Shown piece by piece: positions 26,792 through 32,164 of a stretch of 39,943 nucleotides of DNA; position 1 is the first letter of the stretch; each line of letters starts with the position of its first letter. The notes beneath the pieces were generated by a model that saw only the letters and a list, made by a program, of their open reading frames with translations, did not search any database and was not told the DNA's origin. The stretch covers positions 1 through 39,943 of the forward strand of contig JBMOHO010000001.1 in the NCBI GenBank assembly GCA_049317805.1, written 5' to 3'. The position numbers were made by a program, and so were the translations under genes. This DNA comes from Saprospiraceae bacterium. GTDB lineage: Bacteria > Bacteroidota > Bacteroidia > Chitinophagales > Saprospiraceae.

Positions 26792-28534
26792 ATGGATGTC
26801 CTGCTCCTCACCTACGCCAACAACCACAAGAACCCGTTACAAACATTGACGGAGGAGTATTTGACAACAAGTCGAACACTCACCCCGCGCGAACTGAAAC
26901 GGCATTTCCTGATGCATACCCTCAGCCATGCTACCCTGACGGAGATCGCCTATTACCTCACCCTTTTTCGTGATAATTTACAACTTTTTTTATACAGTGG
27001 GCACGCCGGACAGAATATGCTGTTGACAGAAGACGGCTCGACCCGCTCCGAAGGATTGGCGCATCTTTTAGGCGCTTGCAAGGATTTAAAAGTAGTGGTG
27101 TTGAACGGGTGCAGTACCGCTGGTCAAGTACAAAAGCTGCACGAATGCGGTATACCCGTTGTCATTGCCACCAACGCACCCGTCAACGACTATTCGGCTA
27201 CACAGTTTGCCAACCGTTTTTTTCAGGCACTGGAAACCGGGTTGAACGTTGAAGAATCCTTTGAACAAGCCATAGGTCATGCTTTGGGTATGCGTGAGCT
27301 GACTATCGTACGCAGCATTGGATTTCCGGTCGACCTGGACGAAACGAAACCCGTTTGGGGCATTTTTACCAATCCAGCTAAAAAAGAAGCCGCTCAGTGG
27401 ACATTGCCTATTCAGCAAATGGCACCCAAGTCGGATTATGTTGAGAACGAGTTGCTGCTGAACCAACTGTATGATGCGTTATCCGGATCAAATAAAAAAC
27501 TGGCTGAATTAAAACAAATCGGTGCAACTTTTCCGGAACATAAACGAGATATAATTGAAGCTATTCTTTATGCCTTGCCCGCGCCGATTAGCGAACATGT
27601 ACGCAAACTCCTCGTGCCGTCATATCCCGGAGGAGAACAAGGAGCGGACGTGAACGGCCTTAAGCGCTTGAAGCAATTAGTGAAAACGTATACCATAACC
27701 ATTGATTTTCTGATTTATATCCTGCTCGCACAATTATGGGATTTCGCAATCCAGAAAACAAACCTGTGGTCACCCAATTCCGAATTTAAAAATGAATTGA
27801 CCGCATTTTTGGAAATGAGTTCTGAACAACGAAAACACTGCGACTACTTATCCGTATTGCGCATGCTCCGGGATGCTCTGGAAGATGCCAATCAAGCACT
27901 TTTTGTCACTGAAATCAAAGAACTGCGGGTGTTGCTGTTTGAAGACATCAACTTTCAAAATGCTTGTTTTTTTCTGGAAACCCTTAGGCGTCAACTCGAA
28001 CCCAAAAATGAGTGGGAAATGGCGGAACTATGCATACGTGCCGAAGAATCGCTCGTGGAATTATTCAACAAACTTGGCTTTCTGGGAAATTACACACTCG
28101 CCACGGTACGCTACATTGATGTGCAAACAAACCGAAATAAACTGAACACCGAGTTCGTGCACCTCGTATACAAATGGCATGGCAGCCAGGGGTTTTACGA
28201 CCAGGAGTACAAGCGCCTGCCAGGTTTCATGGACAACCGCTCCGTAATTCTGCTTAGGCGACAAGAATCGACCAAAAATGAGTTTCTAAGCCTCTCGCCA
28301 TTTATCCTGGATGAAAATACTTTTAATAAATATCCGGATGACACCCTCTCAAAATTATACTTTTTTGCCGGACGTACTGGCGAACGCCTGTTTTTTAAAT
28401 ACATCAACGACCCGGAGAACGAAGTCATCAACCTCGATGATCCAAAATACGAGGACAAAAAACTCAAAAAGACCAAATTCCAAGTGGCCAAAGATCAACT
28501 GAATGCCTTTTACAAAACTGTTATTGTGCCATGA
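26792..28534 (+). CDS. Fusion protein: N-terminal minimal CHAT (caspase-fold) domain + ~375-aa uncharacterised C-terminal region
   Basis: The N-terminal ~170 aa align by eye with the CHAT domain of the 31295 gene. VLLLTYANN matches ILFLAADP. LFLYSGHAG (His71, codon 27002-27004) matches VHFSGHGA. VVVLNGCSTAG (Cys107, codon 27110-27112) matches VVLNACYSE. VVIATNAPVNDYSATQFANRFFQAL matches YVIGMSDAIGDKAAIAFAIGFYQAI. I do not recognise the rest. Its stop overlaps the next start (ATGA at 28531-28534). Confidence 0.7.
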   Translation: MDVLLLTYANNHKNPLQTLTEEYLTTSRTLTPRELKRHFLMHTLSHATLTEIAYYLTLFRDNLQLFLYSGHAGQNMLLTEDGSTRSEGLAHLLGACKDLKVVVLNGCSTAGQVQKLHECGIPVVIATNAPVNDYSATQFANRFFQALETGLNVEESFEQAIGHALGMRELTIVRSIGFPVDLDETKPVWGIFTNPAKKEAAQWTLPIQQMAPKSDYVENELLLNQLYDALSGSNKKLAELKQIGATFPEHKRDIIEAILYALPAPISEHVRKLLVPSYPGGEQGADVNGLKRLKQLVKTYTITIDFLIYILLAQLWDFAIQKTNLWSPNSEFKNELTAFLEMSSEQRKHCDYLSVLRMLRDALEDANQALFVTEIKELRVLLFEDINFQNACFFLETLRRQLEPKNEWEMAELCIRAEESLVELFNKLGFLGNYTLATVRYIDVQTNRNKLNTEFVHLVYKWHGSQGFYDQEYKRLPGFMDNRSVILLRRQESTKNEFLSLSPFILDENTFNKYPDDTLSKLYFFAGRTGERLFFKYINDPENEVINLDDPKYEDKKLKKTKFQVAKDQLNAFYKTVIVP

Positions 28535-31294: not shown

Positions 31295-32164
31295 ATGCCA
31301 ATCAACAAGAAAACAATCCAGGCCCTCATCGCCCAGGGCAAAATCGAAAAAGCCGTAGAACAACTCCTCCAACTCGCCGAACAATACGACGAGGACTTGT
31401 ACAACCTCACCATCCAGCAATCTGCCCGACTCAACGGCCTGCGCCAGCAGGTCATGGGCGGCGTGCTCTCCGAATCACAGGCCGACCTCACCCGCAACAA
31501 AATCACGTACGCCGTAAACGAGTGCCTCGACGATGTGCGCGTCGAATGGGAAATACCGGGCGGCGACGATGCTCCCAGGCCAAAAAACACAGTCCAGCCA
31601 GCCTCCAACCTCGTCAAAATCCTCTTCCTCGCCGCTGACCCCTCCAACATGAGTCGCCTCCGCCTCGGGCAGGAACACCGCGAAATACAGGAAAAACTAC
31701 AGCTCTCCAGAGACCGCGACCGCTTCGCACTCACCGAACGCATGAGCGTGCGGCCCGCCGACGTCAGCCAGGCCATGCTCGATGAAAAACCCGTCATCGT
31801 TCACTTCAGCGGCCACGGCGCCGCGTCGGGCGAACTCGCTTTTGAAGACGCCAATGGCCTCACCAAACCCGTGAGTCCGGCCGCCCTGTCGGGCTTGTTC
31901 GAACTCACCGAATCGGTGCAATGCGTCGTGCTCAATGCCTGCTACTCCGAGCCCCAGGCCGTGGAAATAGCCAAACACGTAGACTACGTCATCGGCATGA
32001 GCGACGCCATCGGCGACAAAGCGGCCATTGCCTTCGCCATCGGTTTTTACCAGGCCATTGGCGCAGGCGAAACGTTTGAACGGGCCTACAAATACGGGTG
32101 CACACAAATTCTGCTGCAAGGCATACCCGAAAACCTCACCCCAAAATTGCTGGTTAAGCAATAG
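31295..32164 (+). CDS. CHAT-domain peptidase with an N-terminal ~85-aa helical adaptor (effector-associated-domain-like)
   Basis: The N-terminus IQALIAQGKIEKAVEQLLQLAEQYDEDLYNLTIQQSARLNGLRQQVMGGVLSESQADLTRNKITYAVNECL has the pattern of the short all-alpha domains that precede CHAT, TIR or NACHT modules in conflict systems. The CHAT core reads KILFLAADPSN, PVIVHFSGHGA (His174, 31814-31816) and CVVLNACYSE (Cys216, 31940-31942), then YVIGMSDAIGDKAAIAFAIGFYQA. Confidence 0.8.
   Translation: MPINKKTIQALIAQGKIEKAVEQLLQLAEQYDEDLYNLTIQQSARLNGLRQQVMGGVLSESQADLTRNKITYAVNECLDDVRVEWEIPGGDDAPRPKNTVQPASNLVKILFLAADPSNMSRLRLGQEHREIQEKLQLSRDRDRFALTERMSVRPADVSQAMLDEKPVIVHFSGHGAASGELAFEDANGLTKPVSPAALSGLFELTESVQCVVLNACYSEPQAVEIAKHVDYVIGMSDAIGDKAAIAFAIGFYQAIGAGETFERAYKYGCTQILLQGIPENLTPKLLVKQ

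Follow-up and report, generated by a model that had tools for sequence, protein, structure and literature searches.

A tightly coupled CHAT protease–nSTAND1 NTPase gene pair with a predicted outward-facing FGE-sulfatase-fold ectodomain in a Saprospiraceae bacterium

The conserved unit at this locus is a tightly coupled two-gene dyad: gene A joins a CHAT protease domain to an uncatalogued module, and gene B encodes an nSTAND1 NTPase with one predicted transmembrane (TM) helix and a C-terminal FGE-sulfatase-fold domain. We lean, by a small measure, toward the view that this dyad is a functional unit made of a membrane-anchored NLR-like receptor and a separately encoded caspase-like effector. For annotation, A and B are best taken together as one system, from which gene C, the next gene along, should be kept apart. 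The features of interest in the window (the whole 39,943-nt stretch analyzed) are listed here, with residue numbers referring to the protein named.

11622..31239, no strand: variable region (island) of ~19.6 kb, strain-specific, with A-B at its right edge
26381..26419, + strand: terminator-like hairpin (16-bp stem plus T-run) that ends the upstream AraC-family gene unit
26665..26672, + strand: tentative candidate for a -7 promoter box of the Bacteroidota type, TACTTTTG, lying 120 nt before gene A
26792..28534, + strand: gene A, 580 aa; CHAT protease plus orphan module
26792..27370, + strand: A residues 1-193, compact CHAT/caspase-fold domain with the dyad His71/Cys107
27425..28531, + strand: A residues 212-580, uncatalogued ~370-aa module (helical bundle, beta subdomain and C-terminal helix)
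28531..31239, + strand: gene B, 902 aa; nSTAND1, putative coiled coil, TM helix and FGE-sulfatase-fold ectodomain
28573..29301, + strand: B residues 15-257, nSTAND1 P-loop NTPase core (Pfam E 3.5e-34)
30046..30111, + strand: B residues 506-527 (LLVVLGLLFLLVAVSALWAI), single predicted TM helix (Kyte-Doolittle 2.84)
30463..31224, + strand: B residues 645-898, FGE-sulfatase/C-type-lectin-fold (FGS) domain, predicted extracytoplasmic sensor
31240..31294, + strand: B-C spacer, gene C's native 5′ region, with a -7-like box TACTTTTA at 31265-31272
31295..32164, + strand: gene C, 289 aa; EAD11 plus compact CHAT; conserved-flank gene outside the A-B unit

An ORF check of the window found all three genes on the + strand exactly where a sequence-only reading had placed them, and the residue numbers, the ATGA overlap and the intergenic spacer given in that reading are likewise present: the stop of A and the start of B share 4 nt (junction CC ATG A TAA), and 55 nt separate B from C. 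The hairpin comes from a consensus scan alone, whose region-wide total was not above shuffle expectation, and the TACTTTTG box is only a candidate because the window holds 31 such motifs versus 24 in shuffles, which is not significant. The domain assignments used below are whole-protein profile matches with E-values far below chance, and as such we take them not to be chance features.

Profile and model identify gene A as a CHAT protease whose dyad is intact and whose catalysis is predicted. Residues 32-160 match Pfam CHAT (E 3e-8); His71 lies in LYSGHAG (starting at 67) and Cys107 in LNGCSTAG (starting at 104), and both the dyad and the surrounding GHA and NGCST motifs are invariant, the dyad across 40 homologs with identity down to 28%. 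The AlphaFold2 model of A (pLDDT 88, pTM 0.88, with lower confidence in the linker joining CHAT to the module) has as its best Foldseek match the SAVED-CHAT structure 8tl0 (E 1e-6, 22% identity), and MALT1 and caspases are also found. The CHAT fold and dyad proposed earlier for A are thus supported by Pfam, the 40-sequence alignment and Foldseek; the PADLOC models gave no match for A. Both A and C show the caspase-hemoglobinase fold with an ordered His...Cys dyad that defines clan CD. Their CHAT cores had been called clearly paralogous: the relatedness holds (32% identity over 99 residues, E 1e-6), although “clearly” is somewhat strong.

The module that makes up the rest of A found no match among Pfam, NCBIfam, PDB sequences, PDB folds or BFVD folds. 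It shares no fold similarity with known pore-formers or toxins, and Pfam, NCBIfam, PADLOC and fold searches gave no match to gasdermin, EACC1, Pepco, MBL or alpha/beta-hydrolase. It occurs in 1060 cluster representatives at E<=1e-3, is modeled with pLDDT values of 85-88, and contains a long, conserved and fairly hydrophobic helix at residues ~290-321 (KD 1.76). The slot N-terminal to it varies, being filled by CHAT, EAD11, weak TIR-like matches or a methyltransferase, or left empty; an EAD11-module gene replaces the CHAT-module gene before nSTAND1 in 7 loci, and the methyltransferase-module gene is still found directly before an nSTAND1 gene. Of the ~60 module proteins in the B-seeded set described below, ~13 lack any N-terminal domain and have no evident effector in their vicinity; for these, an activity of the module itself fits no less well than a role as a pure adaptor. 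nSTAND1 keeps the module as its partner whatever N-terminus the module carries. That constancy, together with the swappable N-termini, means that the earlier proposal that the C-terminal region of A supplies the killing step is possible but not favored. The module also offers a testable handle, as the constant element that would couple interchangeable effectors or adaptors to the NTPase, and it could be a functional analog of CARD, Death and EAD adaptors with an unrelated fold.

In gene B the NTPase motifs are intact (Walker A GPSGTGKTS with Lys60, Walker B LIFDQFEE at 127, and ILILREEYFG at 165), the core columns are invariant in 6 orthologs, and the protein also matches Pfam NACHT (E 8e-7). 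No EAD or effector is fused N-terminally to the NTPase, the nSTAND1 match beginning at residue 15 and the orthologs being built likewise; against the PADLOC defense models B gave only weak, spurious P-loop matches (E at least 4e-4). The TM segment is preceded by 7 K/R in 15 residues and followed by 2 in a 15-residue window, so that by the positive-inside rule it is predicted to be N-in, and the B ectodomain should lie outside the cytoplasm. Most B orthologs have a hydrophobic segment at the same position, with an ectodomain that is FGS, WD40 or unassigned; one clade of B proteins is without a strong TM segment, which implies that not all members of the family sense the outside. Pfam, motifs and hydrophobicity agree with the architecture first proposed for B: a STAND (nSTAND1) NTPase, one TM helix and a C-terminal FGE-sulfatase fold.

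The coupling of A and B that had been suggested by the ATGA overlap is well borne out by adjacency, overlap counts and co-divergence. In each of the earliest four lineages examined, nSTAND1 comes straight after A and overlaps it by 4 nt. In an A-seeded survey (80 genome loci; 91 module instances including the earlier loci), nSTAND1 lies directly downstream of the module gene in ~85 of 88 evaluable cases, and 63 of 82 A-B junctions have the 4-nt overlap. A B-seeded survey of 80 metagenome loci gave the reciprocal picture, with a module gene directly upstream of B in 65 of the 72 that were evaluable. Module and NTPase distances are correlated (r=0.76, Mantel 0/999), a co-divergence that could come from co-inheritance alone, and one Rosetta-stone fusion (P0297) carries nSTAND1, CHAT and the module in a single chain. 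The pair recurs across filamentous Bacteroidota, with loci in the hundreds.

The FGS domain of B matches PF03781 over the full length of the profile (E ~1e-37). Formylglycine-generating enzymes (SUMF1/FGE) have a catalytic cysteine pair in their C-terminal active-site region; no cysteine occurs in the final 60 residues of B (active-site positions being judged from sequence rather than structure), and the NCBIfam enzyme equivalogs score far below cut-off on B, which speaks for a binding domain. As an annotation, the label FGE-sulfatase is probably misleading here. Several relatives of B have DGR-type TR/VR pairs whose mismatches fall at TR adenines (20 of 20 in L001, 20 of 21 in L006 and 16 of 20 in L022), and a further locus, L151, combines an EAD11-module gene, nSTAND1, FGS, HRDC, RT and TR. 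For the window's B, neither an RT nor a repeat partner of its 3′ end was found within the 39.9-kb contig, and a trans-acting DGR may lie elsewhere in the genome. Aligned with DGR-targeted orthologs, its VR-equivalent is degenerate, with the GGSW/CR scaffold lost, and its last 45 aa show 0 differences from those of P0386, which comes from another sample; by these comparisons the window's B is a fixed, non-hypermutating version. Genomes hold several paralogous A-B pairs with differing ectodomains. Since it includes DGR-diversified receptors, the family appears to link hypermutating “antigen receptors” to a caspase-like output.

For gene C, the domain calls made earlier, an adaptor-like N-terminus and a CHAT core, match what Pfam finds: EAD11 at residues 4-80 (E 2e-17) and CHAT at 93-239 (E 1e-7), with His174 and Cys216 as the dyad. 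C also matches PADLOC chat (E 3e-18), and its CHAT is weakly similar to HetF in NCBIfam. Grouping C with A and B as a three-gene cassette, with B activating two CHAT proteases and C recruited via EAD11, now seems to us quite improbable. C does follow B closely on the same strand with no terminator-like site between them, EAD11 belongs to the family's vocabulary (the EAD11-module genes above, and a fusion protein, P0341, that reads caspase-module-EAD11-trypsin), and ~4 lineages have an EAD11 protein no more than 10 kb from a CHAT-type A-B pair (the window, L017, L051 and L043/L099); these loose co-occurrences, however, are within chance if a genome holds several EAD11 genes. Weighing more heavily on the other side, C orthologs at 94% identity occur in 20 contigs without A-B, beside the same PIN, antitoxin and 1148-aa caspase genes; no C-like EAD11-CHAT gene was found adjoining any of ~150 other A-B pairs; and GC is 55% in C versus 42-48% in A-B. 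By blastn of the window against L008, L010 and L013, synteny ends at 11621 and restarts at 31294, and fine alignment indicates that the 55-nt stretch ahead of C is C's own (its 5′ region is ~70% identical to that in A-B-free relatives), which places the island boundary near the B stop.

The “EAD principle” that Kaur et al. reportedly set out in 2020 is said to place the same EAD on core component and effector, usually in adjacent genes. No such pairing occurs in the window, and variants elsewhere carry the EAD on the core side only. Pfam and local HMM searches found no EAD11 in the window outside C, and since A and B are without it the defining homotypic pairing with C is missing. As far as sequence and synteny tell, C is a CHAT effector tagged with EAD11 that is part of the conserved flank and independent of the dyad. 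The EAD11-module variants indicate that it belongs to the same wider effector network; a cognate EAD11-bearing core for C is absent from this contig, and is possibly an EAD11-module plus nSTAND1 pair like those elsewhere.

In the receptor–effector reading of the dyad that we prefer, the periplasmic FGS domain would bind a non-self ligand, for example a molecule derived from a phage or from the envelope, or a component of a foreign cell's surface, and ligand-driven clustering would pass via the TM helix and the putative coiled coil to the NTPase, which would then oligomerize in an NTP-dependent manner. The module would hold A on B, replacing the EAD/CARD-type adaptor or fused N-terminal effector of other STANDs; the CHAT domains thus gathered together would be activated by proximity and cut cellular targets, with growth arrest or death of the affected cell within the filament as the outcome. 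A bolder form, which we offer tentatively, would make the dyad a bacterial “surface” NLR, in which a lectin-fold ectodomain (antibody-like and DGR-hypermutated in some lineages) reads ligands beyond the cytoplasm, and the receptor signals through the membrane to fire a caspase-like protease docked via a ~370-aa coupling domain not described before; this domain would define a large family in filamentous Bacteroidota whose effectors swap among CHAT, TIR-like, EAD11 and methyltransferase. If this were true, it would be the first case in prokaryotes of an NLR/caspase pathway that runs from the outside in, one that joins the logic of death receptors to that of the apoptosome. To our knowledge, the bacterial STAND/NLR-like immune sensors characterized so far all detect phage proteins intracellularly; a conserved and abundant family of membrane-anchored NTPases with an outward variable sensor would extend NLR-type signaling to extracytoplasmic cues.

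Two other readings keep the dyad and change what it does. A might be self-contained, with the module a latent toxic effector (for example, a membrane-active one) that CHAT frees or licenses by cleavage once B has been activated, and with no docking adaptor involved; we regard this as unlikely. Protease licensing of linked latent effectors is an experimentally established general logic (PMC12642450), and the orphan fold of the module, its long hydrophobic helix and the low-confidence linker that joins it to CHAT are all compatible with it; stand-alone module genes before nSTAND1, with no enzymatic effector nearby, suggest that the module may itself be the output. But the module is also fused to methyltransferase, EAD11 and TIR-like N-termini, and given these non-protease fusions and the protease-free modules, protease cleavage cannot be its general mode of activation; moreover, its fold is unlike those of known pore-formers and toxins, and it is encoded beside the NTPase, diverges in step with it and in one case is fused to it, as would be expected of a coupling domain. 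The other reading, in which the dyad is neither immune nor suicidal but an outside-in signaling device (for envelope stress, cell-cell or kin recognition, or filament development) whose CHAT processes a regulator as HetF-type proteins do in cyanobacteria, strikes us as still less plausible. It draws on the predicted periplasm-facing sensor, unlike those of characterized Avs and bNACHT proteins, on the paralogous pairs with different ectodomains, on the weak HetF likeness of the C CHAT, and on the presence of the gliding/T9SS components GldJ and GldK among Bacteroidota FGE-sulfatase-fold proteins. The island, which was also found in another sample (L097), has housekeeping-type gene content, with a TonB-dependent receptor and an ammonium transporter among its genes, so that a defense context is at most putative, and PADLOC recognized no defense genes in it other than CHAT/caspase matches. 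Set against these points are several hallmarks of conflict systems, namely DGR hypermutation in relatives, swapping among CHAT, TIR-like and EAD11 domains, presence/absence polymorphism and low GC, and the fact that STAND plus caspase-fold pairs have been death or immunity modules wherever tested (PMC13581612, PMC12642450).

We found no experimental characterization of this architecture in the literature, as the sequence-only reading had supposed, and its comparison with NTPase-centered conflict systems predicted by comparative genomics fits the A-B pair well; the novelty it claimed was overstated. Kaur, Iyer, Burroughs & Aravind (2021, eLife, Fig. 2I; PMC8195603) predicted STAND NTPase-FGS conflict systems with caspase effectors and DGR linkage, so that the STAND–FGS–caspase class has already been predicted computationally and the A-B dyad, by its domain content, is a variant of it. 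Those systems are built on a STAND-clade P-loop NTPase of the nSTAND1, NACHT or MNS type. They share with the dyad a central nSTAND1-clade NTPase, a C-terminal FGS domain as the proposed invader sensor, caspase-type effectors, a frequent (not obligatory) linkage to a DGR with its RT, accessory protein and TR/VR, paralogous copies per genome, and a preference for filamentous or multicellular hosts. They differ in that their EAD or effector is fused N-terminally to the NTPase, whereas B begins with the NTPase, its effector being supplied by another gene that is translationally coupled to it and also encodes the uncatalogued module; in addition, the dyad has a TM helix between NTPase and sensor, and the window copy is without a DGR. 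Dore et al. (2024, PNAS; PMC10907252) described STAND (nSTAND1/NACHT)-CLec targets of clade-5D DGRs as “putative antigen sensors” of multicellular bacteria, one NACHT-CLec target being predicted to have a periplasmic CLec. The nSTAND1 plus CLec/FGE targets and the adenine-specific TR/VR at the sensor's 3′ end resemble what we see in L001, L006, L022 and L151, whereas in the window neither a TR nor an RT lies within 40 kb of B, whose VR scaffold is gone and whose tail is identical between two samples; a CHAT-module partner gene upstream is absent from their description.

“Transmembrane STAND ATPases” have also been mentioned (PMC12642450), and FGE-sulfatase sensors are listed as a structural class among antiviral STANDs (Avs1-5, bNACHT and newer clades; Gao 2022; PMC13581612). 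In these, as is proposed for the dyad, a P-loop switch oligomerizes on ligand and activates an effector, which in some clades is an N-terminal caspase-like one; those characterized are single cytoplasmic polypeptides sensing phage proteins inside the cell, in contrast to the predicted membrane-spanning protein with an outward sensor and a split effector. SAVED-CHAT, linked to CBASS and type III CRISPR, is the closest structural match to the N-terminal domain of A and has the same His/Cys dyad, but its regulatory domain is SAVED, activated by a cyclic oligonucleotide, and in A the place of SAVED is taken by the orphan module with its coupling to a STAND NTPase. In eukaryotes, the dyad is probably analogous to the apoptosome (Apaf-1-caspase-9), in which an NTPase platform recruits a caspase-fold protease via a non-catalytic domain for proximity activation, and probably also to TNFR/Toll-type receptors, which pass ligand-induced clustering through a single TM helix; in the dyad, the adaptor is without homology to CARD or Death domains, and receptor and platform are one polypeptide.

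In agreement with the sequence-only reading, the three genes lie exactly where it had placed them, and the residues and motifs it quoted (His71/Cys107 in A, His174/Cys216 in C, and the Walker-A Lys60, LIFDQFEE and ILILREEYFG in B) are correct:

26792-28534, + strand: gene A, 580 aa
28531-31239, + strand: gene B, 902 aa
31295-32164, + strand: gene C, 289 aa

The TGA of A shares nucleotides with the ATG of B (ATGA), and a spacer of 55 nt separates B from C, both as had been claimed. Profile searches supported each proposed domain: CHAT in A, nSTAND1 (E 3.5e-34) and FGE-sulfatase (E 1e-37) in B, and EAD11 (E 2e-17) and CHAT in C. 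The suggested kinship of the A and C CHAT cores was borne out (32% identity over 99 residues, E 1e-6), and His71 and Cys107 of A are invariant in 40 homologues with identities down to 28%. AlphaFold2 modeled A with a pLDDT of 88 and a pTM of 0.88, and in Foldseek the first ~190 residues of this model matched SAVED-CHAT (8tl0), MALT1 and caspases, in line with the proposed fold. B has a sole strongly hydrophobic segment, residues 506-527 (22 residues, Kyte-Doolittle 2.84), with 7 Lys/Arg in the 15 residues before it and 2 in the 15-residue window just after; given this bias, the predicted topology has the NTPase in the cytoplasm and the FGE-sulfatase-fold domain outside it.

The A–B dyad is robust and abundant. 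The full-length A family comprises 114 clusters at 90% identity, mostly from Saprospiraceae, Lewinellaceae and Phaeodactylibacter, with a best non-self match of 57% identity to our A; homologues put the family in Saprospiraceae, Lewinellaceae, Haliscomenobacter and Chitinophagales. A survey seeded from the C-terminal module of A (residues 212-580) confirmed 230 loci in GTDB species genomes, of which 80 were retrieved and their components called with local HMMs, one per component. The nSTAND1 gene lies directly downstream of the module gene on the same strand in about 85 of 88 evaluable cases, and of 82 junctions, 63 are 4-nt overlaps. When a second survey was seeded independently from the NTPase domain of B, in metagenomes, the module gene was found directly upstream of 65 of the 72 evaluable B-like genes. 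Pairwise distances of module and NTPase are correlated (r = 0.76, Mantel 0/999, 75 pairs, some of them paralogous pairs of the same genome), and in one protein (P0297) nSTAND1, CHAT and module are fused in a single chain. The hydrophobic segment after the NTPase and coiled coil occupies the same place in most B orthologues, with one clade lacking a strong TM segment; beyond it, most have no assigned domain, while ~10 lineages have FGE-sulfatase (FGS) and several have WD40.

With a profile of the module, 889 representatives (50% clusters) were found at E <= 1e-10, a number that rises to 1,060 at E <= 1e-3. Searches of Pfam and NCBIfam with 14 members gave only noise at E <= 1, and neither a sequence-profile search of the PDB nor Foldseek searches of the PDB and BFVD (best E 0.013, TM <= 0.17) returned a match. 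Modeled alone (pLDDT 85, pTM 0.89), the module is a helical bundle followed by a beta-rich subdomain and a capping helix. A DH-PH or COMMD-like identity was rejected, the resemblance being faint (TM <= 0.17), as was CATASP, a name used in PMC12642450, because it is a small CATRA-associated protein; P0236, a candidate stand-alone module, proved to be a split A gene.

The domain N-terminal to the module is most commonly CHAT. Large fusions carry Peptidase_C14 or LRR+CHAT there, seven loci carry EAD11 (Pfam E 1e-16 to 1e-21), and one protein (P0113) carries a methyltransferase, with the nSTAND1 gene still downstream of it; matches to TIR_2/DUF4062 are weak. In ~13 loci the module has no N-terminal domain at all, and the genes upstream of these stand-alone forms are unrelated (glycoside hydrolases, histidine kinases, TPR-SpoIIE), with no hidden effector among them. 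We read this pattern as the mark of a coupling component that stays constant while the effector/adaptor in its slot is exchanged. One protein of 1766 aa (P0341, at L095:2230-7530) runs Peptidase_C14, A-type module, EAD11 and Trypsin_2, the sole case seen with EAD11 after the module rather than before it; no nSTAND1 gene accompanies it on its 9.5-kb contig.

Neighborhood conservation, which upheld A–B adjacency in both survey directions, told against C. An orthologue of C (P0115, 94% identical) is present on 20 contigs, and at the six of its loci examined the order is photolyase, a small variable gene, C, PIN_3, a 79-aa gene and a 1148-aa Peptidase_C14/DUF7379 gene, without A–B. The A homologues of four divergent lineages each overlap a following nSTAND1 gene by 4 nt, and a C-like gene is present in none of the four. 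Aligned to contigs that have the C orthologue but not A–B, the window divides as follows:

325-7937 and 10127-11621: syntenic, 84-85% identity to relatives
7938-10126: second window-specific insertion, absent from related contigs
11622-31293 (~19.7 kb): window-specific block, standing in place of ~850 bp
31294-32812: syntenic, 95.5% identity to relatives
32813-34093: window-specific 1.3-kb insertion, 34% GC, between antitoxin and caspase genes
34094-39328: syntenic, 96% identity to relatives

In a finer alignment, the 55 nt 5' of C's ATG share ~70% identity with the native C upstream region of A–B-less relatives, and a Bacteroidota -7-like box is common to both (TACTTTTA versus TACGTTTA); the border of the island therefore lies at about the B stop codon, and C retains its own 5' region. 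The GC content agrees with this border, at 42-48% in A–B versus 55% in C and ~52-57% in the flanks. Promoter assignments are tentative, since a sigma-70 promoter/terminator scan gave counts equal to those of shuffles and the window as a whole shows no enrichment of the Bacteroidota -7 motif. Rfam and tRNA scans yielded a tRNA-His at 6812-6886 alone, unconnected with the island borders. Within the metagenome series from which the A–B-less contigs came, another sample contains the same island, A–B included; the island is therefore a presence/absence polymorphism among related populations. Besides A–B it carries genes for a TonB-dependent receptor and an ammonium transporter, for an S8 subtilase with a 1002-aa TPR-CHAT protein next in line, and for an AAA-ATPase_like/PDDEXK_9 protein and an AraC regulator. 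Features in and around the island are these:

7969-10215, + strand: ORF for a hybrid histidine kinase of 748 aa (PilJ-type sensor, two receiver domains), in the second insertion
16515-17084, + strand: 189-aa ORF just 5' of the S8 subtilase gene
17264-18718, + strand: Peptidase_S8 subtilase, with the TPR-CHAT gene immediately 3'
18742-21750, + strand: 1002-aa protein with TPR and full-length CHAT
32086-32601 (PIN_3) and 32520-32807, - strand: PIN_3 toxin-antitoxin-like pair, adjoining C and the caspase
33040-33423 and 33438-33743, - strand: small ORFs in the 1.3-kb insertion
33741-34047: tandem repeats in the 1.3-kb insertion, ~3 copies of a 110-nt unit, 98-100% identical
34096-37542, - strand: 1148-aa Peptidase_C14 caspase with C-terminal DUF7379 region
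38120-38241: inverted repeat with 58-nt arms and 6-nt spacer, GGAATGC heptamer repeats, between the caspase region and the contig's last ORF

Four caspase-superfamily proteins are thus encoded on this 40-kb contig (TPR-CHAT, A, C and the 1148-aa caspase), the last of which may be a protease-effector fusion like those in PMC12642450. The block of caspase, PIN_3 pair and C is 95-96% identical in all related contigs; over the whole right flank (31294-39328) identity is likewise 95-96%, whereas the same contigs match the left flank (325-11621) at only 84-85% identity, which suggests that the right-hand block was recently recombined or exchanged. Pfam matched neither of the two small ORFs of the 1.3-kb insertion nor the 189-aa ORF, which contains three direct repeats of ~40 nt at spacings of 150-168 nt. 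The subtilase/TPR-CHAT pair is kept together in L097, which, with a second contig, represents independent assemblies carrying the same island. Both stop ~503 codons into B (window ~30040), at the NTPase/TM boundary just 5' of the ectodomain-coding part, and assembly may have broken there because the population is heterogeneous, for example in carrying alternative ectodomain cassettes.

The compact CHAT core of C (~185 aa; 31571-32110) belongs to a family of >4,200 clusters, 60-69% identical across Cyanobacteria, Proteobacteria, Chloroflexota and archaea, whose N-terminal partners include several EADs, TIR, SIR2, kinases, E2(-like), REC (receiver) and FGS domains; this conservation is unusually strong for a promiscuously shuffled effector. 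By the EAD principle, an effector tagged with an EAD has as its partner a core protein bearing the same EAD (PMC7159879). A itself carries CHAT, not EAD11, in its N-terminal slot, and Pfam and a local HMM found no second EAD11 in the window. EAD11-module variants do exist, placing C in the same wider network, and EAD11-CHAT proteins such as C would be exactly the trans-effectors that some A–B-type systems would need. Other EAD11 proteins lie loosely near CHAT-type A–B pairs in about four lineages, which chance could explain.

Some relatives link B to a diversity-generating retroelement (DGR). In L001, a locus whose A is 55% identical, an HRDC accessory gene and a gene for a reverse transcriptase (RT) come after A–B; the variable repeat (VR) is the last ~46 codons of B, the template repeat (TR) lies beyond the RT, and 20/20 mismatches fall at TR adenines. 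The same pattern is seen in L006 (20/21) and L022 (16/20), and L151 combines EAD11-module, nSTAND1, FGS, HRDC, RT and TR. The clear adenine-specific TR of L006 is directly 3' of gene B (L006:12772-12896); a local RT model found no RT within this 17.8-kb locus, Pfam had no match for the downstream genes (317 and 301 aa), and the RT may be either divergent or acting in trans. In the window, no TR was found by a whole-contig repeat search or by blastn at sensitive settings with the final 170 nt of B, and no RT by Pfam on the ORFs scanned or by a local RT HMM on all ORFs of >= 50 aa. The canonical VR scaffold is lost in this B (GGSW to GASR, CR to IH), and a 98%-identical copy from another sample (P0386) has 6 differences over 341 positions, all of them before the last 45 residues. 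With neither TR nor RT and an unvarying VR-equivalent, a DGR for this B was rejected, a verdict limited to cis; judged from its sequence, this copy is a fixed receptor.

The best-supported reading, towards which we lean, makes B a membrane NLR-like receptor and A a CHAT protease docked through its module. The lectin-fold ectodomain of membrane-anchored B would bind an extracytoplasmic ligand, and clustering would lead to NTP-dependent oligomerisation of the cytoplasmic nSTAND1 domain; the module would dock A onto B, and proximity would turn on the CHAT domains for cleavage of cellular targets. That C belongs to the same machine is very doubtful: for all its closeness to B and its CHAT kinship with A, each part occurs without the other. 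Of the sequence-only reading, then, the A–B coupling and the domain assignments stand and the triad falls.

The stand-alone modules leave room for an output activity that the module may have of its own, and it could be a latent effector licensed by cleavage; we consider this unlikely, the variable slot beside a constant nSTAND1 partner pointing to coupling, and it is partly compatible with the receptor–protease reading. A non-immune signalling role for the dyad seems very improbable. The receptor–protease reading has close precedents in several sources. Kaur et al. (2021; PMC8195603) describe STAND-FGS systems, including an nSTAND1 clade and DGR linkage, with EADs or effectors, caspase included, fused N-terminally; in Dore et al. 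(2024; PMC10907252), DGRs target nSTAND1/NACHT-CLec proteins (CLec, C-type-lectin fold), one predicted to have a periplasmic CLec. A 2026 survey (PMC13581612) lists FGE-sulfatase among STAND sensor classes, and a 2025 preprint (PMC12642450) has proteases fused to FGE domains and names "transmembrane STAND ATPases". Term searches of these four sources found no mention of a separate, translationally coupled module gene, we found no experimental work on the A–B architecture in the literature, and PADLOC models did not recognise it. The general class and its logic were thus predicted before; new are the split effector with its orphan coupling domain, a membrane-spanning layout that is conserved, and a family of this size and coherence. 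If the topology and coupling proposed here are true, A–B would be the first example in bacteria of an outside-in NLR/caspase pathway.
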